Below are positions 7,130 to 62,488 of a stretch of 64,000 bases of DNA, in pieces (position 1 is the stretch's first letter; the number at the start of each line of letters is the position of its first letter). A model generated the notes under the pieces. It saw nothing but the letters and a program-made list of their open reading frames with translations. It ran no database searches and was not told the origin of the DNA. The DNA comes from an uncultured Candidatus Peribacteria bacterium (lineage in GTDB: Bacteria > Patescibacteriota > Gracilibacteria > Absconditabacterales > Absconditicoccaceae), in assembly GCA_964560855.1 (NCBI GenBank), contig CAZLLU010000001.1, forward strand, positions 17,051-81,050, in the 5' to 3' direction. The translations under genes were made by a program, and so were the position numbers.

Positions 7130-7277
7130 AATGAATGATGAATATTTATAATGAATAATGAATAACGAAAAGTGAATAACGTCGGTATTTGTCTTTTTAT
7201 CGACTATCGTATGTATACGATAGTTTATGATAAAATATTACATTCATTATTAATTATTAATTTTTAATTGTTAATTT
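7130..7277. repeat. Intergenic module: AATGAATA-type word arm, central palindrome, inverted CATTCATTATTAATT arm
   Basis: 7130-7181 AATGAATGATGAATATTTATAATGAATAATGAATAACGAAAAGTGAATAACG. 7202-7224 GACTATCGTATGTATACGATAGT. 7241-7277 CATTCATTATTAATTATTAATTTTTAATTGTTAATT. Confidence 0.6.
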
Positions 7278-10531: not shown

Positions 10532-10712
10532 AAACTAATGAACAAGTAATAATTAATGATAATGGAAATGTCTTTGTATGAACTATTGTAGATAGCTGGT
10601 AATTTATGAGTAATATGGTTGAAAATTCAAGCGAAAATACTAAAAACCAGTATACAATTCTAATAAAAATGGTTTAAAAATTTAAAATTTAAAATTTAAA
10701 ATTATATTTGAT

Positions 10713-13947: not shown

Positions 13948-15258
13948 TTATATTTTCTCCAGCAAATCCGTCACGATGCTATTATACACATTCATCCCTT
14001 CATCCGTAAGTTGCAATTTCTTCCCATCAAAATCAACTAATCCTGCTCATTCGTAATTTGTAATTAGTACTTTGTAATTGGGGACTAAAACTGACGTAAA
14101 TTTCGAAATATCTCAAATACCCTCGCGTGTTCTCAATCTGAGGAAAAAATCTTCTATTAATATATCTGACTCATTCAATACTTGGACTTCTTTTTCATCG
14201 ACCCGATTTCATTGGAGATAGTCTTGCATATTGGCGGTGTTGGTTCGACGAAGACCGAAAGAGGCAAGGGAGGAAATGAGCAAAGGAGGAAAAGAGGAAA
14301 TTAATTTGTCATTGGTCATTAGTCATTGGTCATTGAAGAACGACGCTGCTGATAAGCCTAGTCATAAATAGTTCTCCCTATGCCAGTAGGCCATATTGTG
14401 AACTGAAGCTTTGCTGGCATGAGCAAAATTAGAGATTTCATATCTCTGGTATCCAGCGTCTTCGATATATGCTTTCAATATCTGAAATTCTTCCATGATC
14501 TCATCGTCACTACCATGATATGATGGATTAGACGGGTTGGATGGATTAGACGGGTTGGATGGGTTGGATGGGATAGGTCCTGTTTTATCTATTCCATCGC
14601 TCTTGTCTTTGAGTCATTCGAGCGTATAGAGAGATATGCTGTCGGCGAGTCCGCTATTCAAAAAGTCGTTCAGAAAATTGCGCTTGAATTCATGTCGGAG
14701 TTGTTTGAATCCGTTTTTGCTGACTTGGAATTTACCGAAGGCGATGAAGTCAAAATTGAAGACGGTGTTCTCCTTTTTGTGTTTCATGAGCTGTCTCAAA
14801 AACTCCGCAATCTGCGTAAAATTATACGCCCTTCATGTCCGTTGCAACACTTCATCGTCGAAACTTTGGATACCGAAACTGAATCTCACTCTTGGGAAAT
14901 CCTTATATTTTTTGTTGATAGTATCTACGAAATGCAGGACTTCGTCCATCGGATTTGGATTGAGTTCTATACTCAGTTCTGCAATATTTTCAAAATTGAA
15001 CTTTCCTTTGAGGTAATCTATGATATCGATGATCCTGTCGACGCCGATTCTGCTCGGAGTTCATCATCAGATATAAAGTGTTTTGATTTCTTTATCGGTA
15101 AGTTTTTCTGCATAATAATCTATTTCTTTTTTTAATGCTTCGACATAATTCGTAATTTGTAATTCGTGATTTTCCAATTGGGAAATCGGCATGCTATTGA
15201 ACGAGCAATAGGCACATTTACTGGCGCAGAATGGTATGTGGACATAAAGACTTAACAT
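13948..15258 (-). CDS. hemW: Radical-SAM heme chaperone HemW / HemN-like
   Basis: HIPFCASKCAYCSF radical-SAM motif, then YEISNFAHASKASVHNMAYWHRENYL-G-LGLSAAS. The whole frame was checked from 15258 to the TAA at 13948-13950 and only TGA interrupts it. Confidence 0.85.
14522..14575. repeat. Six tandem 9-nt units inside hemW encoding (PSN)6
   Basis: GATGGATTA GACGGGTTG GATGGATTA GACGGGTTG GATGGGTTG GATGGGATA. This is 54 nt, in frame, and translates on the minus strand as PIPSNPSNPSNPSNPSNPS. Confidence 0.9.
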
Positions 15259-15373
15259 AACTAATAATGAATAGTGAAAAATGAAAAATGTAGGATTCGC
15301 TAAAATTAATAGACTATTGTGATTTTACAATAGGTAATAAATATGCAGTACCAACGTTATTTATTGTTAATTG

Positions 15374-16255
15374 TTAATTGGATCTCGATATATCGAGTCC
15401 TTCGGCGTATTCGAACTTGCCGAGTTTGGATCAGATTTTATCTTTTTTGCAATATTCTTTGTAATCAAGGACTTTTTGTTTTTTCACATCCAATGGCTCT
15501 TTGGACATCATGCCTGGGCCACCGATACATCATCATTCGCAGGCGAGGATGTCGAGGAACTTAATATTTTTATTGTTTTTGAACTCTTGGATGCCCGCAT
15601 CTATTTGTGTAGGACCGTCGATTACGAGTATCTGATCTTTTGTTAAAATGCCCTTGTAATGCATACTATCTGCTACTCATCCAGCAAGTGGATAAACTTT
15701 GGTGTAGTCGTTGTAGAAGTGATCAAAATCAGGAGTACCATCTTCAGTAACCGAGAAAGTAAATTCTTCTGGCTTGATATTATTCTCTTTGTTGTAGTCG
15801 AGAATATCCTGAAGTTCTTTGAAAGTGATAGCATAATCGATGCCATATTGTTTTGCTTCCAGCTTCTTTGCTAAGCATGGCCCGATAAAGAGCGTCTTCC
15901 ATTCGGGACCATATTGTTTTTTGACGAACCTATGCATGACGACCATAGGTGATGAAACATTGATGATATGTTCTTTGAGCTCAGGATATTTCGCATTGAT
16001 CATCATGACGATGGTAGGACAATTAGGACAGATATATTGTTTATCAGGATTCTCTTTCAGAATTTTCTCATATTCCATATTGATCAGTTTCGCAGCATAG
16101 GTGAGTTCAACAACATTTTCGCAGCCGATTTTTTTGAGATCGATGATGATCTCTGGATATGCAAAATCCACTGGGAAACTCGGCGCCAATAGTCAGATGA
16201 CCTTTTCTTTCCTTAGTGCATCCGCAATACTTTGGAGCTCGGGAGTGAAAACCAT
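15374..16255 (-). CDS. [FeFe]-hydrogenase large-subunit C-terminal (H-cluster) domain-like protein, 293 aa
   Basis: IGPCLAKKLE resembles the MPCxxKxxE motif. DILACE-GG-CIGGPG resembles the CxxGCxxGGG motif, with both Gly encoded by TGA at 15530-15535. ICPNCPT occupies the place of TSCCP. TAA stop at 15374-15376. Confidence 0.6.
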
Positions 16256-16390: not shown

Positions 16391-17734
16391 TTATAAAGTA
16401 TATACGATTTTATCGCCAATTTCCAACTCCTTTTTCTCGTCGAACATCGCTACGATATTTTTCACAGGTATTTCATCTACATCATCAATTTCTGGACAAT
16501 TCAGCCATGGCCTGACTATGAGTTCAGAGTTCTGAGTTCAGGGTTTAGAATAGATTTCTGTAATGTAGCCGACGTCTTGCGTTCACTTTCTCGCTGATTC
16601 TCTTTCGAACAATTGTTTATTTACTAGCTGTCTGATCTTGGTGAATCTCGTTCTAATTTCAGCGTCATCGACTTTATTCGATAATTTACTGGAAGCTGCC
16701 AATGGCTCATCGTGGTATTCAAAAAGAGCGATATTGTCGAATTTCGTTTCCTTTACAAATTCCAAAAGTTTCTCGAAATCCTGCTTCGTCTCGCCGGGAA
16801 ATCCGATGATCAAATTCGTTCTTACAAATCTGATCGGAAAGGAATCTTTAATCTGAGAAATAAAATTTTTGATATAATTTTCGTCGTAGAATCTGCCCAT
16901 TCTTTTTAGTATATTCGAACTTATATGTTGTAATGGGATATCGAAATACGGGATAAACTTTTTTAATTTTTTCATCTCTTTGATCTGTTCCAGTGTCACA
17001 ATATCGGGATAGAGGTAGAGGAGTCTATAGGTAAAATCTCATTTTAGCTTATCCAACTTTTTCAATAGTTCCAAAAGTTTTGGCTCACCATACAAATCGG
17101 TACCATATCTTGTGGTGTCTTGCGCTATCAAAATAATTTCCTGAATGCCGTTTGCGTTCATCTGTTTCGCCTCGTTCAAGACTTTTTCCATCGCGAGAGA
17201 TTGCTGTTTTCCTCTAATCGCTGGGATGATACAGAAGGTGCAATGATTATCACAACCTTCGGCAATTTTTAAATATTCATATTTCTGATCAATGTTCGTG
17301 TACACTCTCGGTGTCGTCGGAAATTCAAATTCACCATATACCTTGCTCTCATATCATTTCAATAATTCTTTGATACTGACCTTGTTCATATCTCATCGGG
17401 AAAGGTAATGAATTAACTGATTGACAGCTTTAGACTTTAAACTTTGAGCTTTAAGCTTTTTGTAGTATTGCACGGCGCAACCCATAAGATAGACGGTTTT
17501 TTTTGCTTTCAATAACTGCTTCACTGTTGCATCGGCTTCTTCTCTGCCGGAGGAAATAAATCCACAAGTATTCACAAAAACATAATTCGCATCTTTATCA
17601 AACGGATCAGCGAAATAGTTTATCTGATAGTCGTGCGACTTCATGCTCATATCGAATATCCTACCCAAAAAATGCTGGCTATCGACCAGATTTTTGGTAC
17701 ATCAGAGATTTATAAGGGAAAAATTAAATTCCAT
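16391..17734 (-). CDS. rimO: Ribosomal protein S12 methylthiotransferase RimO (MiaB-family radical SAM)
   Basis: INL-G-CTKNLVDSQ, AEGCDNHCTFCIIPAIRG and a C-terminal TRAM-like segment. ORFs 17393-17668, 17039-17305 and 16583-16999 share one frame. TAA stop at 16391-16393. Confidence 0.85.
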
Positions 17735-19447: not shown

Positions 19448-19668
19448 ATAAATTAATTAAGAATTAAGAATAATAAAGCAGAGAGTTTAAAGCTTCAAGT
19501 TGTTCTTTAGATTATATTGTAACTTTAAGCTTGAGACTTTGAACTTTACACTAATAGAATATAGGAAATTCAGTCGTGAATTCCACAGGTAAATAGGATA
19601 GTGATAAAATGCTTCTTATTGATATTTGTCTATATGTCAGTATAAGGATATAACTAAAAACAAAAAAT

Positions 19669-19881
19669 ATGAAAAAGACTAATAGGAAAAGGTATGTTCG
19701 TGTATATACGAGCCAAAAAAAGAGGAAAGTAAAAAAAGAAAACGATGAAAACAGAAAAACGGAAAGAAGAATACCTGATCGTATTCACAATGAAATTGTG
19801 GGAGAGTTTTCTATGTACGGTATGACCGTGCGTTATTGATTAAATAATCCGTATTTTATAATAAGTGCGGATTTTTTTTAA
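19669..19881 (+). CDS. Small very basic hypothetical protein (70 aa under table 25)
   Basis: MKKTNRKRYVRVYTSQKKRKVKKENDENRKTERR... There is a TGA at 19837-19839, then a hairpin (AATCCG..CGGATT followed by a T-run), and a TAA at 19879-19881. Confidence 0.3.
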
Positions 19882-19914
19882 TCTAATAATATACTAGGAA
19901 TACTAAGATATGAA

Positions 19915-20045
19915 AAAAACCCGCCTAAGCGAGTTTTTTCACCCCTGCGAAGCAGGGATATGATAAGCATGGTTATGCTTCAACTTTAAGACGTAATATC
20001 CGCCCAGGCGGATGACAAATGCTTCGCGCTTCAATACTGCTTAAT
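19915..20045. repeat. REP-like cluster of GC-rich hairpins
   Basis: CCCTGCGAAGCAGGG, AAGCATGGTTATGCTT, TCCGCCCAGGCGGA. It also carries AAATGCTTCGCG, which is shared with 6546-6557. Confidence 0.6.
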
Positions 20046-20101
20046 AATAGCTGTATCATAGCGGATTTTTGGCAATTTTTAGTCAATTATTCGTCTGTCA
20101 T

Positions 20102-25636: not shown

Positions 25637-27016
25637 ATGAAAAAAAAATTTCTACGACGGTATTATAAATTGCTCGGAAAATTGGCCCATGGATATATAG
25701 AGAAACACAATCCTCAGATTATCGGAATCAATGGAAGTGTAGGGAAGACCTCCTGTCGTATGATCATCTATCAGACGTTGCAGAGATTTTTGTCGAACAA
25801 GCGTATCTATACATCGCCCAAAAATTTCAATGGCGAACTCGGGATGTCGCTCTCTATTTTCCAGGTAGAGAAACGGGAACCGAATATCCTATATTTCATC
25901 ACAACTCTTTTCAAACTTATCCGAAAAAGATTTTTCTGACCGAAACCTTATGATATCCTGCTTTTGGAATATGGCATCGATCGTCCCGGGGAGATGGACT
26001 TTCTTGTAAGTATAGCTAAGCCACATATCGGTGTATTTACCGCAATTGACTCCGTACATTCAGAACAGTTCGGCAATCCAGCAGAGATAGCCAAGGAAGA
26101 AGTGAAAATGCTCAAGAACACACTGGAAATCTGATTTTTGAATGCAAATGATCCTTATGCAATACAGCTCAAAGATCACCTTTTCATAGATTATCTGACG
26201 TATCAGACGGAAGGCAACGATATTACAGCCGACATTTATTTTAAGGATGAACTCTTCTATCTCGCTGATTTCAAAGGGGGAATCTGAGTACAATTTTCTA
26301 CCCGAATCAAAGAAAAAAAATACGCTGTGAGTACAAATGTACTGAGTAAGGCAAATTATGGTTATATCAGTGTGGCTTTGGCAATTGCTGGAATATTGGA
26401 TTATAAATATGCTAAGCTCGAAGCGAGAGCAGAGGATCCAATTTTAAGAAATGGATCACGTGAGCTTTTGGAAATGAAGTATCAATTGCAGCCAGGAAGA
26501 CTTTCTATCTTTAAAGGTGTCGAAAATAGCGTCATTATAGATTCTACGTACAACGCTTCTCCATTGAGCGTGAAGAAGATCATAAATACTGCACATAATA
26601 TTAAGGCACAATTATTCCCTCAGAGGAAAATTATCCTTGTACTATGAGACATGAGAGAATTGGGCGATCTTACAGAACGCGAACATAGGATGATTGCAGG
26701 GTATGTGTCTCAGGTGGCTGACAAAGTCATTCTCGTAGGGCAGTATATGACCGACTATTTAGCGGATGAATTAGAGAAGGTAGGATTCAATCCTAAGCTG
26801 ATAGAGAAATTCTATGACGCGAATGTCGCAGGTAAACATATCCAGAAACTCCTGAAAGAACCGGGTGACGAATATCTCGTTGTCTGCAAGTGAAGCCAGA
26901 ATACCATCTTCCTCGAGGAAGCGGTAAAGCAATTTCTTCAGAATCCCGAAGACCAAAAAGACCTGACCAGACAGTCAGATCGATGGTTATCTACGAAGAA
27001 GAAATATTTCAAATAA
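25637..27016 (+). CDS. murF: UDP-N-acetylmuramoyl-tripeptide--D-alanyl-D-alanine ligase
   Basis: GINGSVGKTS P-loop, LLLEYGIDRPGEMDFL, IIDSTYNASPLS, VL-G-DMRELG. Pieces 25637-25939, 26327-26647 and 26651-26893 share a frame. TAA stop at 27014-27016. Confidence 0.9.
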
Positions 27017-27020
27017 TTTG

Positions 27021-27105
27021 GAATTTACAATTTGAAATTTTTAATTTAAAAACTCGATACCTCAAAGAGGTTTTAAAATTGTAAATTTAAAATTCAAAAT
27101 TTAGT
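27021..27105. terminator. Convergent terminator: long AT-rich inverted word arms around hairpin ACCTCAAAGAGGT
   Basis: AATTTACAATTTGAAATTTTTAATTTAAAA .. ACCTC-AAA-GAGGT (27059-27071) .. TTTTAAAATTGTAAATTTAAAATTCAAAATTT. Lies between murF (+) and the 7TM gene (-). Confidence 0.6.
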
Positions 27106-27110
27106 TTGGT

Positions 27111-28406
27111 TTATTCCTCTTCCTCCTCAGCCCCTGAGGAGTTTTTTAATAATGGCATGAAGCGGAAATATTCGAGCAATTGGAGCCCGGTGAATCTTCC
27201 TACGAGGATATTCAGTAAAAAAATCAGAATGATAAATTCAGGGAAAGCCAAGAGCAGATGTTTTAATCCTGTTCGATAGAGAAGTCCGTAGACAGAGAAG
27301 GAGACGAGCAAAAATTCTATAAAAGCAACCCATCGACCTTTACTGAAGAGCTTGAATCCTTCATTGAAGACTTTATCGCTCACGAGGGTGATGAATAGTA
27401 TCGGGAATATGATATAACTGTTGGTGAAGATGCTGATATCTATCCGATTTAGTTTGAGTATGCTGTTGAACCCAAAGACCAGGAGTAAGATGAAAAAATA
27501 GAGGATGATGAGTAGTGCACTTTTTGCGTTGTGTAGGAGATACATTTTTTTGGTAAACAAACGTATCAATAATTTTGTAATGAATCAGACAATCAGAAGT
27601 CATAGGCTCAATGGGACTCCGAGGATTGACATCGAGACAGCAAAAAGCAGGGGACTATAGATACCAAATACGGAGAATCCTACAAGTTGTCTGAACATAC
27701 TTATTATCAGCGCACCTAGTGAAAGGACAAGAAACATCGCAATCAGTTCGACAGGGAATCCATGCGCGATGAGACGATCTACGATATATGATATAGGCAG
27801 ATATTTTGGTGTCTCTTGGAATGAGAGGGAAAATGGGGTGATGTATTCTTCATTATTCGTGATTTTTCCCATCGAAAGTGAAGAAAGGAAGTTCAGAAAC
27901 TTATCTTGGGAAAGCGTATATACCTTACTGATCGCTAATGGTTGTACATATTTTGCTAACGTCCTTTTGAGGAAAAATTTGTTGCTGTTGGTGATAAGAT
28001 AGATGGTTTTGTCTTGGAGATTGAGATTGTTCGTGTCTTGTATCTTATCAAATAATTGTAGAAGGACGTCGAATTTCGATGTATTGATGATCAATGTATT
28101 GGTCTCTTGAATTTCATTAATATTGCTCATGATCTTGTTAGTGATCTCATCTTCGGAAAAGTTTTTTTCAGAAATGAAAATCTCCTGGAGTAGCATTCTC
28201 TTTTTATCCAAGTTCTGCTGGAAACCGAGATCGAATGCGTCTCATTGCTCTCCTATATAGATGATCGTGTTTGTGTATCTAATTCATTTTGTCGGAGCAG
28301 CACAATGCGTTTGTCCCTCGCAATCGACCGGCGTGAATTGAGCAGAAACAATAGCAGTAGCGCCAAGAAGTAGGATGAAAGTTATGATAGAGAGAAATTT
28401 TTTCAT
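27111..28406 (-). CDS. Membrane protein: signal peptide, ~200-aa extracytoplasmic domain, polytopic 7TM_transglut-like C-terminal domain; ends SSGAEEEEE
   Basis: ORFs 27600-28211 and 27111-27569 are joined by the TGA at 27600-27602. ATG at 28404-28406. MKKFLSIITFILLLGATAIVSA signal peptide. VGFSVFGIYSPLLFA and GRFTGLQLLEYFRF. TAA stop at 27111-27113. Confidence 0.7.
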
Positions 28407-44054: not shown

Positions 44055-44104
44055 AGGAGAAAGAAAAAAAATAAAACAACAATACGGTAGATGAATATAT
44101 CTAT

Positions 44105-44152
44105 AGATAAAAATAGATGATATACAATAGATAAAAATAGATGATATACAAT
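44105..44152. repeat. Perfect 2 x 24-nt tandem repeat in a divergent promoter region
   Basis: AGATAAAAATAGATGATATACAAT occurs twice (44105-44128 and 44129-44152). Confidence 0.9.
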
Positions 44153-44219
44153 AAATTTTATTTGCATTCTTGTGGTGTTTACATACAAAAATATATATTT
44201 ATATCGATAACATGATACT

Positions 44220-48322: not shown

Positions 48323-48952
48323 CTATGATTTTTTACACACCATAATATGTCCTATGATATTTCCTTGCTCGATGACTGGTACGAGATGAATATCAAAAAA
48401 GCAGTTGTTCGCAATCTTTTCCAAGTCTTGGATCCTATGATTGAAAAAATCTATTTTGAACTGATCTTTATTCTTTTTCCGGATGAATTCACGTCTCTGG
48501 ATGAAATGTCCGATGATCCGTACTCATCACGTTTTCAATATTCTGTAGACTTCATTGAATAATCATTCTACATCTTCGATGTGTTCCAGTACGAAAAAGC
48601 TGGTGGCGAGATCAAATGATTCGTCATCGAAGGGGAGTGGCTGTTCCAAATCACAAACGACTTTCTCTACTTTGCCAGCATTGTTGGGATGTCTGCTCAA
48701 AAGTTTTTCAGCGATATCACAGGCGACATATCTTTCAGGATTCAGGGGAGAGAGGTATTTGAACATTCTTCCGTCGCCAGCGCCAAGATCGATTAGTGAG
48801 ATCTTTTCCTGTCTGGGGAGGTATTTTACAAAAACACCTTTGTCAAAACTATCAAGGTGTTTGTGGTGTTGCCCGTATTGATCGGCTATGGTGTTGTAGC
48901 CAGTCTTCGGATCGTGGATGAGAATGTGTTTTTGGTTATAAGACAAACTCAA
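48323..48952 (-). CDS. Class I SAM-dependent methyltransferase
   Basis: LIDLGAGDGRM motif I, and FFVLEHIEDVE-G-LFNEVYRILKT-GG-V. TTG start at 48950-48952. TAG stop at 48323-48325. Confidence 0.75.
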
Positions 48953-48994
48953 TTGCTAATTGATTAAAGATGAATAATGAATGATGAATGATTT

Positions 48995-49045
48995 TGGTAT
49001 AGACCTGCTATGAACTATTTTGGTATAGACCTGCTATGAACTATT
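48995..49045. repeat. Tandem duplication (2 x 25 nt, period 26) carrying the GAACTATT half-site
   Basis: TGGTATAGACCTGCTATGAACTATT at 48995-49019 and again at 49021-49045. Confidence 0.9.
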
Positions 49046-49114
49046 GTAATACAACGATAGTTTATTTTAGCAATACCAGCATTATTCATTTTTCATTATT
49101 AATTATTCATTTGT

Positions 49115-49513
49115 TTAAAAGAATTTCTTCTCTTCATCGACTTTTTCTCTTGCTTTATTCAAGAACGGCTGCATTTTTTCTTCTATATTTGGACTAGGTT
49201 CTTGCAAAAATTTATTTAATTCTGAACTTTTTTCTGCGGCTCTCTTGATATGCACGTAATATTTACTCAATTCCGCTACGACATCATTGAGATCGTCATT
49301 TTTTTCCAAGAGTTCGGTCGTCTTTTGCTTCAATAACGCATTCTGCTGGACGTACTCATCAAGTTCACTACTGAGATATTCTACTTCTTTTCCAGCTTCT
49401 TTGAGATTGGATCTTAGTTGATTGACGGTGTCTTTGTGCTGATATCTGAGATAGAAAACGAAGTATCACAAGAGTCCTCCTGCTATGGCTGCTAAAATGA
49501 TATATCACGTCAT
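49115..49513 (-). CDS. Membrane-anchored coiled-coil protein (132 aa)
   Basis: MT-G-YIILAAIAGGLL-G-YFVFYL TM segment followed by a heptad-like helical region. TAA stop at 49115-49117. Confidence 0.55.
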
Positions 49514-49593
49514 GATTTTTAATGTAGAATGTAAAATTCAGAATTCAGAAACATAACACACAATATATAGCAGTTTAGAAGAAGAAATCAAAT

Positions 49594-49620
49594 GAAAAAA
49601 CCCGCCGAAGCGGGCTTTTT
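49594..49620 (-). terminator. Rho-independent terminator downstream of the HU gene
   Basis: AAAAAACCCGCCGAAGCGGGCTTTTT. Confidence 0.75.
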
Positions 49621-49644
49621 ACAGCGCTGTAATATGGTATGAAA

Positions 49645-49920
49645 TTACTTAACAGCAGCCTTGAATTCAGATCCAGCCTTGAAAGTAACTACCTTCATTG
49701 CAGGGATGTTGATTGTTTGAGAAGGATTTTGTGGGTTAACACCTTTTCTAGCTTTTCTTTTTGAAGCCTTGAAAGTTCCGAATCCTTGAACTCTAACTTC
49801 TCCTGATTTCTTAACACCACCGATAACAGTTTCGATGAAAGCGTTAACTAATTCAGAAGCTAACTTCTTAGAAACACCTAATTGTTCTGCTAGGCTAGCA
49901 ATAAGAGCTGTCTTTGTCAT
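49645..49920 (-). CDS. HU-family DNA-binding protein
   Basis: Uninterrupted 91 aa. MTKTALIASLAEQLGVSKK...GFGTFKASKRKARKGVNPQNPSQTINIPAMKVVTFKAG. Confidence 0.95.
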   Translation of the reverse strand: MTKTALIASLAEQLGVSKKLASELVNAFIETVIGGVKKSGEVRVQGFGTFKASKRKARKGVNPQNPSQTINIPAMKVVTFKAGSEFKAAVK

Positions 49921-50200
49921 TTGTACAAATAATTACTAAATAAAAAGTACTGTGTACAGCAATGATATTAGCATAGAGGAACTGTATTTCAAGAGATTTT
50001 GGCAGGAAAACCGGTTATATCGGCGAATACATACTTATTAGTTCTCACCTAGGATTTCTCGTAATTTACGGTTGTATTCGGGGATTTGGGATTGACATTT
50101 TGGTAAATATATACGTTAAAAAATAGAAGAGAGATGGGAAAAGCCACACGAGATGCGGGGCTATAAACTGGGGTCAAAAAATTTACTACTATATATAGTA

Positions 50201-53029: not shown

Positions 53030-53030
53030 A

Positions 53031-53095
53031 ATTACGAATTACGAATTAAAAATTACGAATTACGAATTAAAAATTACGAATTACGAATTACGAAT
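53031..53095. repeat. Tandem ATTACGAA-word repeat (about three 21-nt units)
   Basis: ATTACGAATTACGAATTAAAA ATTACGAATTACGAATTAAAA ATTACGAATTACGAATTACGAAT. Confidence 0.9.
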
Positions 53096-55113: not shown

Positions 55114-57027
55114 TTATCTTGGCATCATTCATCATCACATTCAACCTCACATTCAACCTCACATTCATCACATTGATCATCACATAAAATTAGAGTTAAC
55201 AGGAGTATTTGTTGATGTATTTGTAGTGACTTTCTTGATGATCTGTCATATGGACAATCAAGCTATAATTTCTGTCATAGTTCCATCAGTAGACCCAATA
55301 GTGATTTCTATTTGATGATCCTTTTCATCTAAAACAATTTTTCTATCTCATATCGTTTGGATAAATGTAGTTGGTATAGAAACTACATTTTCTTTGTTGC
55401 TTACGATGATTTTTACTGTAGCAGTCATTCATGAATAGATGATTTTATCTTCCTTATCTATGGCTACTTTTACTGTATAGGAAGTAACTCAATTGGATAC
55501 TACAGGAGTGGAATCTACCTCTCACAGCACTCAATTGAAGGTGATTCACGGATAAGCATCCATAGTGACTTCAACATCCATTCATGCAGTAACATTTACG
55601 ACATCAATCTGATCAAGAGTTATACTGATTTCTATAAGATTAGGATTCTCTAAATAAACATATTTATCTTCTGATGATGTAAGTTTGTCTCCTACTTTAA
55701 AATCTATTTTTCTTATTATTCCATCAAAAGGAGCTTCTATCCTAAGATTATCCAAATCTTTTTTTGTCTGTTCAAGAGAAAGTTCTTTTTGTCTAATATT
55801 ATTCTGAGCAATAAGAAGTTGTTGTTCTGTTGTTCAATTCTTTGTAGTTTCTAATGTGTTTTCTTGAATAGCTATAGTGCTTTCTAAATTCATAACTTCA
55901 GCGGCTTTGGATGCAAGTGTGGTAGCATTGTTAGCAGTGTTTGAAAGACTGTTAATCTGATTTCTCGTGGTCAAAATATTTGCAGAAGTATTTTTTGTTC
56001 CCTCTACATAATTAGAGAGAGTTGTTTTGTAGGTAGAAAGAGAATTTAATGTATTGGGTGAGTCATTATAAATATCGTTTACCGTAGAGTATGCGTTTAT
56101 CGTAGCAGCATAGAGGGCGTTGTAAAAATTCCTTGCATAATCTAGTCCTTCTAGAACCTCTTTCCTTGTAGCTCAAGAAAACGAGATTCAATCGTTACAG
56201 AAACTATCAAAATTATCTAATCTCGCATATGTGGTGATAATTGATTCATCAGTAGTATTTTTTCCTTGAGGATTATAATCTTCTATGATTTGTCTAAACC
56301 ATGCGGTATCATTAGTGTAGGAAAGATATTTATCGCTGCTTCAGAAAAGTTTATCCAATGCATCAAGAAGTTGTCATCATTCTATAAGGTAGTTTTGTAT
56401 ATCCAATTTAGTTTTTTCAAGTGTAGTTACGGTGTCATTAATAGTATTTGATGAATATTTTTGATCTTCCAACATTGCTTCGTATTCTTGTTTGGCGATC
56501 GCTAGTTTTACTTTTGATTGCTCGAGATTGTTTTCTGCTTGGAGTATTTGTGCTTCTCTGTTGTCGCCATTGAGTGTTTCATCAAGTTGTAATTTTGCAT
56601 TTTGAAGATTTATTTCGGATTGGATAATATTGTTTTCTACAGAAGTTTTGTCCAATTCTGCGATAATATCTCATTTTTTTACTGCATCTCAATTTTTGAA
56701 ATATACAGCTGTTACTTCACCCTGTTGGTTGAAACGTAGCTGTTGCTCATCTACTAATTCTGCACTTCAATAAGATTTTATACTATTAATAATTGTTCAA
56801 CTACTTACTACATAGGTAGTAACATTTTCTCTTATCTCTTCTTTTCATCAAATATTGAAGATAAATCCACTTCATACACCTAGGATTGCTCCTATTATGA
56901 AATATTTCTTGATGAAATGAAAAATCATAAATGTCTTGACCTTATTGTAGTGAGGATGTGACTCTATATATTTCTTTGCTTTAGCGTAGTTTTTTACACT
57001 TGCTTCTTTTATATTATTGAGCTTCAT
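55114..57027 (-). CDS. Efflux periplasmic adaptor (MacA/HlyD family) with C-terminal (M-G-G)n tail, 637 aa
   Basis: The whole frame was checked from 57027 to the TAA at 55114-55116. N-terminal TM segment, long coiled-coil, and beta-barrel region (IEAPFDGIIRKIDFKVGD). The tail reads NFMGGSMGGMGGGMGGGMGGGMMPR, with 13 Gly encoded by TGA. Confidence 0.8.
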
Positions 57028-57946: not shown

Positions 57947-59821
57947 ATGAAATCTATAATTCTCCAATTATTCAAGGCTAACCCTAAAGATCGTACCTCT
58001 GAATTCGTCAAAACGCTCAAGAGGGATTTTTCTCGTGCTCATGGTTCGAAGGATCTGCCATCAAATATCCAGCTTTTGCAGGCGTATTTTGAGCTTTTAA
58101 AATCCAAGGAGATTACCAAAGATTCACAGATAGAGCAGTTGCTCAAGAAAAGAGCGATCAGGTCGGAATCAGGGATTGTTTCCGTGCAAGTTCTAACCAA
58201 GCCGTTTCCGTGTCCGGGAAAATGTATTTTTTGTCCCAATGAAAAATGTATGCCCAAGAGTTATATCAAATCTGAACCGGGCGCCATGAGGGCATTTCTC
58301 AATCATTTTGACCCAATCAAACAAGTCTACAATAGATTACTTTCCCTTACCCTTACCGGTCATGAAACCGACAAAATAGAAATGATTGTGCTTGGCTGAA
58401 CTTTCGACGTCTATACGAAGGAATACAAGACGAAATTCGTGAAACAGCTCTACGACGCATGCAATACTTTCGAGGAATATTTCAAAAATATCAAGGTTTC
58501 TACCGAGAAAAAATATTCTCATGCTATCGTCGATAAAAGCAAGAAAATCATCTATTCCACTACGATCGAAGAGGCGCTGAAGAAAAATGAAACAGCAAAA
58601 AACAGGATTATCTGACTGACTATCGAGACGAGACCAGAATATGTGACCGATAAGAACTGCCAATTCCGGCGTGAACTCGGAGTCACGAGAATAGAAATGT
58701 GAGTCCAATCGTTAGACGAAGAAATTTTGAAACTCAACAAAAGAGGGCATACGGTCCAGCAAGCACGTGAAGCTTGTCACAAGATGAGGCAATACGGATT
58801 CAAGATTTCTCTGCATATCATGCCAGGACTCTACGGATCAAATTACGCAAAAGATCTGCAGACATTCAAGGATTTATATAATGATCCATTCTTCAAACCC
58901 GACGAGATTAAATTCTATCCAACCTCCGTTATTCCGAATACTGAACTCTTCAAACTCTATAAACAAGGAAAATATACACCACTCCAAACTGATGATATCA
59001 AAAAATTAATTCAACAGACCTTCATGGACGTTATCCCTCCATATACGAGGATCAAACGTCTTATCCGCGATATTCCTGCTAACGAGATTGTTGCATGAAG
59101 CAAGGTAACGAATCTCTCACAACTTGTACACGCCGAAATGAAATGCAGAATACAGAATTCAGAATTCAGAATGAAAAAGTTTTATGGAAGATTATATGGA
59201 AAATATAAACTCTATTCATCTCTACAAAAAGTGATTAAAGACGAATTGGAGAAAACAGTTGAACTTCAAGGCGTAGGGGATATTCGCGAACATCTCTTAC
59301 AACAAAACATACAGACCTACATTGTCTGAAAGCAACCTGATCTCAAAAGTTTCAGAAATTTCGTTTCACTTGATACGAGAAGTAGAGAGATAAGAAATAA
59401 GCTTAAAGTTCAAAGCCCAAAGCTTAAAGCTGTAGCTAATGTGATAATCAGAAAATATCAGAGTAGCGGAGGAGTAGAGTACTTTATTTCGTTCGAAGAC
59501 CAATTGTGATATTTGTATTGATTTACAAGATTGCTCTTGCCTACAGATTCAGTGGAGGTGAAGTGAATTGGAAACGATACAGCTATTATTAGAGAACTGC
59601 ACGTCTACGGACAAGTAGAATGACTGCGTTTAAACGTTTCATCAAGCGATAAGGTTCAGCATAAAGGATTTTGAAGACAACTTATGGAAATAGCAGAACA
59701 GATTTCGAAATCGCACAATTACAAAAAGCTTTCCGTAATTTCTGGTATCTGAGTAAGGCCGTATTATAGGAAACTGTGATACAAACTAGATGGAACGTAT
59801 ATGGTCAAAAAGCTAAAATAA
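57947..59821 (+). CDS. elp3: Elp3-type radical SAM + GNAT enzyme
   Basis: PCPGKCIFCPN radical-SAM cluster, IEM-G-VQSLDEEIL, C-terminal GNAT HKGF-G-RQLME. Pieces 57947-58399, 58727-59098 and 59138-59329 share a frame. TAA stop at 59819-59821. Confidence 0.85.
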
Positions 59822-62337: not shown

Positions 62338-62366
62338 AACTCTCTATAATAATATAACTAAAAATC

Positions 62367-62488
62367 AATGTTGAATATTGAATTTTGAATGTTGAATGTA
62401 GGAATTGCCGGGATGGACTATCGTAATTTTATGATAGTCAATAAATACAAGTCATTCACTCAACATTTAGCATTTAGAATCCAAAATT
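62367..62488. repeat. Intergenic module: TTGAAT-word arm, central palindrome GACTATCGTAATTTTATGATAGTC, inverted arm
   Basis: 62367-62398 AATGTTGAATATTGAATTTTGAATGTTGAATG. Palindrome at 62416-62439. 62453-62488 CATTCACTCAACATTTAGCATTTAGAATCCAAAATT. Confidence 0.6.

Follow-up and report, generated by a model that had tools for sequence, protein, structure and literature searches.

In-frame 35-nucleotide repeats in rimO and elp3 of an Absconditabacteria genome are probably period-7 simple-sequence arrays rather than copies of an inserted element

The rimO and elp3 genes of an uncultured Candidatus Peribacteria bacterium (contig CAZLLU010000001.1) carry closely similar 35-nucleotide (nt) words, both located in a stretch of 64,000 nt that was analysed as a whole and is termed the window. 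The rimO word (reverse complement of 17424-17458) reads AAGCTTAAAGCTCAAAGTTTAAAGTCTAAAGCTGT and encodes KLKAQSLKSKAV, residues 93-104 in the N-terminal UPF0004 domain of RimO. The elp3 word (59399-59433) reads AAGCTTAAAGTTCAAAGCCCAAAGCTTAAAGCTGT and encodes KLKVQSPKLKAV, residues 485-496 of Elp3 between the radical-SAM and acetyltransferase parts. As an earlier note on this DNA had reported, the two words are identical at 29 of 35 positions and, once TGA counts as a sense codon, each starts at codon position 1 ((17734-17458) mod 3 = 0 and (59399-57947) mod 3 = 0). The note had interpreted them as a discrete element inserted in the manner of Rickettsia palindromic elements (RPEs). Each 35-mer is instead a run of five tandem heptamers, (AAGCTNA)5, anchored on a conserved lysine codon AAG. 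We regard both as probable (at roughly 0.7) period-7 simple-sequence repeats (SSRs), seeded locally and filtered by selection, and not as copies of an inserted element.

The similarity of the 35-mers was compared with that of codon-order shuffles. Among 200,000 shuffles the mean was 12.5 matches and the maximum 28, and 29 of 35 was never reached. This indicated that the similarity is not an effect of codon composition, and lysine codon bias, for which the earlier note had asked for a permutation test, was rejected. The next-best match to the rimO word in the window was the elp3 site offset by exactly 7 nt (25/35), and the sites in the uvrB spacer matched at 25/35 and 24/35. Tandem Repeats Finder (TRF) reported period 7 with 4.6-4.7 copies at both 35-mers. 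The other words quoted in the earlier note were also located (59145-59173, 49523-49552, 14308-14335 and TAATTTG/TAATTCG in hemW), and all of them are tandem arrays of 7-nt units, a property that the note had not recorded. Its central observation, that one word family is found both in spacers and, in frame, within essential genes unrelated to each other, was confirmed, including the copies upstream of uvrB. These look inverted because AAGCTT is self-complementary, so that an array resembles its own opposite strand.

The first unit of the RimO array consists of the conserved Lys-Leu codons themselves (aaa AAG CTT), and that of the Elp3 array of the conserved lysine codon followed by leucine. A perfect (AAGCTTA)5 in the rimO and elp3 frame translates as KLKA-stop-SLKLKA-stop. 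Both 35-mers are identical to this perfect array at 29 of 35 positions; the deviations common to both are at positions 13, 34 and 35, on the two in-frame TAA codons, and the remaining three in each word are private to rimO or elp3. Since the shared deviations exactly remove the in-frame TAA codons, they argue for growth in place filtered by selection and not for insertion of the Rickettsia type. Because rimO and elp3 share the unit, the anchoring codon and the stop constraint, their arrays also agree in phase, in the CAA of the third unit and in the terminal ...GCTGT. No defined ends, terminal inverted repeats, uniform copy size, unique internal sequence or target-site duplications, the last of which the note had proposed to look for, were found at the 35-mers. 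The rimO 35-mer folds with -4.0 kcal/mol (shuffle mean -2.4, standard deviation 1.8), and the value of -7.0 for the elp3 35-mer is due solely to the self-complementary AAGCTT; neither forms a stable hairpin of the RPE type. The analogy with RPEs thus failed for the DNA itself, which showed no dispersed conserved sequence of 100-150 bp, no defined ends and no palindromic hairpin; what the two genes share is 35 nt made up entirely of heptamers, with conserved codons of the host genes on either side.

Comparison of orthologous sites provided further evidence, since these sites bear other units, other copy numbers or no array (Table 1), contrary to the insertion model. Among 45 SR1 orthologs, RimO showed three hotspots with free variation of length and sequence. 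Hotspot 1, which holds the 35-mer, lies directly after the conserved CAVQYYKKL and is a 24-nt non-repeat in eight genomes. For the Elp3 hotspots, the DNA of the window was compared with six orthologs (L082-L087; labels of this form denote related loci). Hotspot 2, the site of the elp3 35-mer, lies directly after the invariant DTRSREIR-N-K, and all arrays there begin on the conserved lysine codon AAG. Hotspot 1 of Elp3 contains a perfect (ATGAAGA)x4.7 in L084, whereas the window and L086 have (NCAGAAT)4 and the other orthologs no repeat. Alignment with orthologs, a check suggested in the earlier note, showed that RimO hotspot 1 is 15 nt longer (39 versus 24 nt) and Elp3 hotspot 2 is 12 nt longer (42 versus 30 nt) than in minimal orthologs. 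The proposed lengthening of surface loops was upheld to this extent, but the additions are not specifically lysine-rich, as other units encode NDQGLMT, SQVPSPK, EPATGNL and similar peptides. The elp3 array encoding CRIQNSEFRM, which had also been taken for an insertion, is none because the region has 57 nt in all orthologs.

The in-gene arrays are placed at alignment hotspots, namely hypervariable loops and linkers. In an alignment with the T. maritima RimO structure, YYKKLKAQ lies opposite the native YYEELKKE and is followed by a 6-residue gap. In the AlphaFold model of RimO (predicted template modelling score 0.76) the array forms the end of helix 86-97 and the loop 98-103, with a predicted local distance difference test score below 50. 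The RimO array is old: a decayed form of it is common to three lineages with about 76-79% protein identity. Between two strains at 96-98% identity no indel was found over 8.7 kb, a region that includes both elp3 arrays; L081 and L090-L094 represent the same strain (0-2 mismatches, no indels) and therefore carry no information on copy-number variation.

Several additional segments were noticed in the same genes. After the conserved MGRF, the RimO orthologs P0027, P0029, P0037 and P0059 contain a sporadic insert of about 50 residues, FPQPQKxQVKRSxFWWLRNAG..NFKWNEEIIDFEN, whose patchy occurrence suggests another in-frame inserted sequence. A second and more element-like in-frame repeat of about 50 nt (about 85% identity) is shared by hemW (14522-14590, minus strand) and the rimO hotspot of L002 (10313-10384). 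It consists of a palindromic head, GATGGAATAG..CTATCCCATC, and a 9-nt tandem tail, ATCCAACCC/GTCTAATCC, and encodes GID..GPIPSNPSNPS; related tandem copies lie at about 3340-3376 of L002. In Elp3, an inserted segment of about 100 amino acids (aa) bracketed by the two arrays was considered and dropped, as all SR1 Elp3 proteins have 610-625 aa and share the segment. Compared with all solved Elp3 structures, SR1 Elp3 has two lineage-wide extra segments, residues 176-204 and 401-500 (58470-58560 and 59150-59445); the larger one, with about 70 residues, separates the radical-SAM domain from the acetyltransferase domain.

The 35-mers are part of a general excess of period 7. Period-7 arrays were searched for with TRF and with our own detector (scores of at least 8 and at least 12). 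TRF returned about 30 period-7 rows in the window, with units as diverse as CAGAATT, CGAATTA, ATGAATA, CAATGAC, AAAATTT and TTGAATG. At a score of at least 8, our detector found 25 period-7 arrays in the window, about 15 of them intergenic, versus 1-4 for each of the periods 5, 6 and 8-11; at a score of at least 12 it found 10, whereas 20 dinucleotide shuffles yielded none. The heptamer-rich set, 250 kb from 12 related genomes with a period-7 excess, contained 96 two-copy perfect 7-mers (20 expected) and 16 arrays of at least three copies (0 expected), and no enrichment at other periods was seen, the counts being near expectation. The corresponding numbers in 344 kb from other SR1 genomes and Gracilibacteria (the heptamer-poor set) were 49 (41 expected) and 0 (0 expected). 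No period-7 excess was present in other SR1 genomes, Gracilibacteria or Planctomycetota, and the excess is patchy even between close relatives. The 101 arrays in the 250 kb comprise 40 in coding sequence, 32 ending at most 40 nt upstream of an ATG and 29 elsewhere between genes. Hence 61 of 101 are non-coding, although non-coding DNA makes up only about 12% of the sequence (coding, 88%), and the 40-nt zone upstream of ATG about 4%. Head-to-tail units, a genome-wide excess, intergenic preference and variation at orthologous sites, as expected of heptanucleotide SSRs, were all found.

The genes of the window are intact only under genetic code 25. The window belongs to an SR1/Absconditabacteria genome with code 25 (TGA = Gly) and 36.5% GC, and its close homologues carry the names candidate division SR1 and Absconditabacterales. 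Open reading frames (ORFs) of at least 100 aa total 48 kb under table 11; with TGA as sense the total more than doubles to 118 kb, and 47 tightly packed genes are obtained. ORF calling with table 11 broke up every gene into a patchwork of short ORFs and was abandoned. The invariant GGGTP motif of hemW is spelled by TGA-TGA-TGA (e.g., 15061-15069, minus strand) and the Walker A motif of uvrB also includes TGA, which demonstrates that TGA encodes glycine. The database homologues mostly show W at these positions. Among the 40 in-gene arrays, 12 (about 30%) contain TGA and are therefore readable under code 25 only.

Leader arrays were also present at hemW, uvrB, gyrB, nrdR and metG. They often run right up to the start codon, many of them in register with the ATG. 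Upstream of the sod array is a promoter-like site of canonical appearance, TTGAAA-16-TACAAT, that is conserved in L083; because L083 keeps this site but lacks the array, the array is placed in the 5' untranslated region. A Shine-Dalgarno-like motif occurs in about 5% of the T/A-rich leaders (40 nt upstream, window genes and related loci), and this scarcity suggests that initiation in the lineage may be independent of Shine-Dalgarno sequences. Two long spacers, 19448-20101 (654 nt) and 49514-50200 (687 nt), contain GC-rich hairpins (e.g., 19920-20030), the latter spacer with a terminator-like stem near 49600, and may encode unannotated small RNAs. No known RNA was matched in the window by Rfam (at the gathering threshold and at E <= 0.01) and no tRNA was found by scan. 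Another spacer, 44088-44153 between divergent genes, holds 2.7 copies of a 24-nt unit.

A common architecture was seen in four intergenic regions, where a heptamer array is followed by a palindrome GACTATCGTA-N4-TACGATAGTC and then by an inverted heptamer array. The palindromic core (7196-7233, 15305-15345, 49029-49069 and 62405-62449) consists of two facing TAC[GA]ATAGT motifs and lies upstream of nrdR, hemW, the gene 48323..48766 and gyrB. An exact search for the core in 80 loci gave no match, while a profile search recovered the four window copies, the hemW leaders of six other genomes and one copy each in L005 and L018. All copies in the window and in the hemW leaders are upstream of the leader array and the gene start. 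Possible roles of the core are those of operator, promoter or RNA-processing site; no -35/-10 boxes were assignable to it, and the sod promoter alone looks canonical. The hemW leader module is kept in L002, L005, L009, L013, L024 and L072, where units and copy numbers vary. Of the six inverted arrangements, three fold significantly as long hairpins (z = -3.4 to -4.3), whereas the folds of the uvrB spacer, the convergent-gene region 27005-27120 and the hemW module were no better than shuffles. Neither a duplication nor an empty site was identified for the composite modules with their inverted arms and shared core. The module at 48961..49111 also includes a 26-nt unit in 2.4 copies (48984-49045).

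The gyrB leader was compared between strains (62338-62486 versus L088:8690-8846 and L089:4992-5148). The strain alignment stops exactly at this module, which is only 58% identical with 32 gap columns, whereas the flanking 8.7 kb is 97.8% identical and contains no indel. In the diverged leader both hairpin arms carry other heptamer units and still pair. The imperfect coding arrays are thus stable at 96-98% strain identity, and the leader modules turn over or are replaced fast.

Table 1. Heptamer arrays and composite modules of the window, and the units found at orthologous RimO and Elp3 hotspots.
Feature	Position or genome	Strand	Description
RimO hotspot-1 array	17424..17458	(-)	AAGCTTA AAGCTCA AAGTTTA AAGTCTA AAGCTGT; encodes K93-V104
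RimO hotspot 1	window, L004		AAAGCTN array, 39 nt
RimO hotspot 1	L009, L012, L071		(CAAGGAG)n + (AACCTGN)n
RimO hotspot 1	L014		(CAGGTTN)4
RimO hotspot 1	L024		(CAGGRAN)4
RimO hotspot 1	L020		(AAAATGG)5
RimO hotspot-3 array	16520..16549	(-)	(GAACTCN)n, GTQNSEL; modelled beta-hairpin loop, C-terminal domain
Elp3 hotspot-2 array	59399..59433	(+)	AAGCTTA AAGTTCA AAGCCCA AAGCTTA AAGCTGT; linker before acetyltransferase domain
Elp3 hotspot 2	L084, L086, window		(AAGCTNA)5
Elp3 hotspot 2	L082		(AAGTCCC)x8.5, perfect
Elp3 hotspot 2	L085		(AAGTTGA)x4, perfect
Elp3 hotspot 2	L083		(AAGTTGA)n
Elp3 hotspot 2	L087		30-nt non-repeat
Elp3 hotspot-1 array	59145..59173	(+)	(NCAGAAT)x4, peptide CRIQNSEFRM
hemW array	14308..14335	(-)	(CAATGAC)x4, peptide NDQGLMTND, TGA = Gly; same site in L005, L014
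hemW N-terminal array	15146..15172	(-)	(AATTACN)n, peptide ELQITNY; orthologous array in L002
hemW C-terminal array	14049..14079	(-)	(TACAAAT/TACTAAT)n, peptide LITNYEG; related arrays in L014, L020
sod 5' leader array	53030..53095	(-)	(AAUUCGU)x9.4, perfect 21-nt super-period, runs into ATG
mutL leader array	10677..10703	(+)	(AAAATTT)x3.9, perfect, 9 nt before ATG
uvrB leader array	19455..19471	(-)	(AUUCUUA)n, ends 7 nt before ATG
Leader array of gene 49115..49513	49523..49552	(-)	(UUCUGAA)n; Elp3 hotspot-1 unit in opposite orientation
uvrB upstream spacer	19483..19551	(.)	two facing AAAGYTT-type arrays; fold not significant, z = -0.3
Convergent gene ends	27013..27103	(.)	facing heptamer arrays around small GC hairpin; fold not significant
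Module upstream of nrdR	7130..7276	(-)	palindrome GACTATCGTA-N4-TACGATAGT; long hairpin, z = -3.4
Composite module	48961..49111	(-)	same architecture as nrdR module plus 26-nt duplication; z = -4.25
gyrB leader module	62338..62488	(-)	z = -4.3
hemW leader module	15259..15385	(-)	palindromic core plus (CAUNNUU)n array abutting ATG

Two further kinds of sequence were recorded outside the heptamer arrays. A 12-nt tandem repeat at 55126-55185 (minus strand) encodes the Gly/Met-rich C-terminal tail ..GGGMGGGMGGGMMPR of a 637-aa protein (55114..57027). In related strains, genes of the 23S_rRNA_IVP/bAvd fold (L082:1-128 and L089:7532-7885) are found near the sod-elp3 and sigma-factor regions; bAvd proteins are accessory proteins of diversity-generating retroelements.

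The period-7 specificity, the distribution of the arrays, their codon anchoring, the variation at orthologous sites and the pattern of stop avoidance are best accommodated by an SSR process. A replication or repair process in the SR1/Absconditabacteria lineage would favour duplication and turnover of 7-nt units, with slipped-strand mispairing, a mechanism proposed for other bacteria, as the likeliest candidate. Arrays would begin from local sequence, such as the conserved Lys(-Leu) codons AAG CTT at both sites, and would then expand, shrink and be homogenised in place. Selection would clear harmful arrays, so that survivors are expected in 5' leaders, spacers and length-tolerant loops or linkers; within genes, mutation would have to eliminate in-frame TAA/TAG codons and the total length would have to remain divisible by 3. 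The arrays of rimO and elp3 would be of independent origin. Several observations weigh against this interpretation. Elp3 hotspot 1 has a fixed length (57 nt everywhere) and yet carries perfect arrays, and the net length changes at the hotspots (+15, +12, +24, +36 nt) are never multiples of 7, so that paired gain and loss or conversion-like events must be assumed beyond slippage by +/-7. Strains at 96-98% identity do not differ in the length of their coding arrays. The unit AATTACG forms 9 arrays at unrelated loci in 6 genomes, and AATTCAG and AATAATG also recur; such recurrence of non-trivial units at unrelated loci is not predicted by pure local seeding. Finally, the leader arrays have 46% T and 4% G on the sense strand (leaders generally, 11% G), are conserved at orthologous sites and are often paired as hairpins. 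Their conservation, G-poverty and pairing hint at a function beyond neutral slippage.

These features raise the question whether the intergenic arrays at least are functional cis-elements under selection, the coding arrays being mutational spill-over, which we consider an unlikely but live alternative. The arrays might serve as unstructured, G-poor and U-rich ribosome landing sites without Shine-Dalgarno sequences, or, together with their inverted partners and the core, might form hairpins in RNA or DNA that act in termination, processing or regulation. Such roles would agree with the position of about one third of all arrays at most 40 nt upstream of an ATG, many in register, with the low G content and the scarcity of Shine-Dalgarno-like motifs, with the orthologous hemW leader module in seven genomes including the window despite drift of unit and copy number, and with the three significantly folding modules, one of which changed both arms in the diverged strain with pairing kept. 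However, the diversity of units implies no specific pairing partner or binding site, and array-free SR1 relatives with the same leader composition also lack Shine-Dalgarno sequences, so that the arrays are not required. Half of the inverted arrangements fold no better than shuffles, and concerted evolution alone can yield conservation of arrays. A more far-reaching variant, which we rate as rather improbable, holds that arrays and palindromic core constitute a lineage-specific system of exchangeable leader cassettes. Such a cassette, a hairpin module preceded by a promoter or an upstream gene and followed by the start codon, would govern RNA processing or translation initiation independent of Shine-Dalgarno sequences. 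Exchange or rebuilding of cassettes between strains would far outpace change in the rest of the genome. The system would be driven by a dedicated activity making 7-nt units, and the in-frame arrays would be its by-product, better tolerated since TGA is sense.

Descent of the rimO, elp3 and uvrB-spacer copies from one small mobile repeat, similar to RPEs or to miniature inverted-repeat transposable elements, would account for the 29/35 identity, for the shared phase and ends (AAGCTT... ...AAAGCTGT) and for the recurrence of units at unrelated loci in both orientations. The dispersed repeat of about 50 nt in hemW of the window and rimO of L002, the sporadic insert in some RimO orthologs and the four window copies of composite modules with inverted arms and a common core point in the same direction. 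We nevertheless find this origin quite improbable, because the 35-mers consist entirely of tandem heptamers, begin with conserved host codons as their first unit, lack unique internal sequence, termini and target-site duplications, and owe their shared deviations to stop avoidance. Moreover, orthologous sites carry other units, including perfect arrays of varying copy number, the array was inherited by descent in three RimO lineages, and the core, found only upstream of gene starts, behaves like a regulatory module and not like a random insertion. Phase variation by heptamers is known from other bacteria, with Haemophilus hmw and E. coli neuO as examples of contingency loci. As 7 is not a multiple of 3, a change by one unit would shift the frame, or it could alter the spacing between promoter and start, and perfect leader arrays exist upstream of sod and mutL. 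It is very improbable that the arrays serve as such switches, since their hosts are housekeeping genes (rimO, elp3, hemW, gyrB, uvrB, mutL, sod), the coding arrays are imperfect and short (3-5 units), no indel was found between strains over 8.7 kb, and all ORFs are intact. A chance similarity from Lys-rich, AT-rich codon usage, to which the K/L/A/S-rich peptides and the low GC content might point, has a practically negligible probability given the codon-order shuffles and an excess that is absent from shuffles and from relatives of like composition.

Local growth of period-7 arrays has consequences for annotation: such segments in SR1/Absconditabacteria and similar genomes should not be described as mobile elements or inteins. 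A small streamlined genome offers a clean natural system for the question why bacteria favour 7-nt repeats, and because close lineages with and without the excess coexist, comparison of gene content could reveal the replication or repair factor involved. The arrays that abut start codons are a testable lead on translation initiation with scarce Shine-Dalgarno sequences.

Short tandemly repeated repetitive sequences (STRRs) of the cyanobacteria Calothrix and Nostoc/Anabaena resemble the arrays described here: 7-nt units, several per genome and typically in 3-10 copies, intergenic enrichment, occasional inverted pairs forming hairpins, and variation between close relatives. The units of STRR1-3 are reportedly CCCCAGT, TTGGTCA and CAACAGT (Mazel et al. 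1990 is named as the source), and by this comparison the present arrays appear to be of the same kind and not of the same family. The present units are AT-rich and bear no relation to cyanobacterial or Xanthomonas G-rich units, so that they lack G-quadruplex potential; the host is a tiny-genome bacterium of the candidate phyla radiation with code 25, and many arrays abut start codons while others are embedded in frame in essential enzymes. An excess of heptamer repeats is found in many bacteria, chiefly between genes and in some cases as inverted pairs, and is proposed to originate from slippage (PMC4692102). The excess is especially intergenic in Nostoc and Xanthomonas, and a link to the polymerase footprint was suggested (PMC4692102); a general over-representation of heptameric SSRs is attributed there to Mrazek et al. 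2007. The claim of the earlier note that the system is undescribed therefore stands only in part. This kind of repeat is known from other phyla, whereas our literature search on heptamer repeats in Gracilibacteria/Absconditabacteria returned nothing relevant, and the occurrence in Absconditabacteria appears undescribed in the literature searched. What is particular to this lineage is the tolerance provided by code 25, the concentration at start codons with scarce Shine-Dalgarno sequences and the fast-changing hairpin modules.

RPEs are dispersed palindromic elements of 100-150 bp with conserved sequence that are thought to be mobile. The likeness to them is limited to the outcome at the protein level, namely extra in-frame peptides in permissive surface regions of essential proteins; unlike RPEs, the 35-mers are 7-nt tandem arrays seeded by host codons, with no element-like ends. 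In Geobacter metallireducens, four GGACCGG repeats occur at 49 sites and five MTYCTGA repeats at 15 sites (PMC2700814). As here, arrays of four or five heptamers lie between genes and within them, sometimes several per gene. The Geobacter arrays are dominated by one or two GC-rich units, read as regulatory RNA or binding sites (PMC2700814), whereas here there are dozens of units with site-specific variation among relatives and anchoring on host codons.

The tandem repeats of Borgs offer a last comparison. Their coding repeats are said to have unit lengths divisible by 3 and a widely varying period. According to PMC9879509, these repeats evolve fast, arise locally in coding and non-coding DNA as the present arrays do, and create low-complexity, disordered protein regions. 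Unlike in Borgs, a single period of 7, coprime to 3, dominates here in both coding and non-coding DNA, and the arrays yield peptides with a period of 7 residues that read all three frames of the unit.

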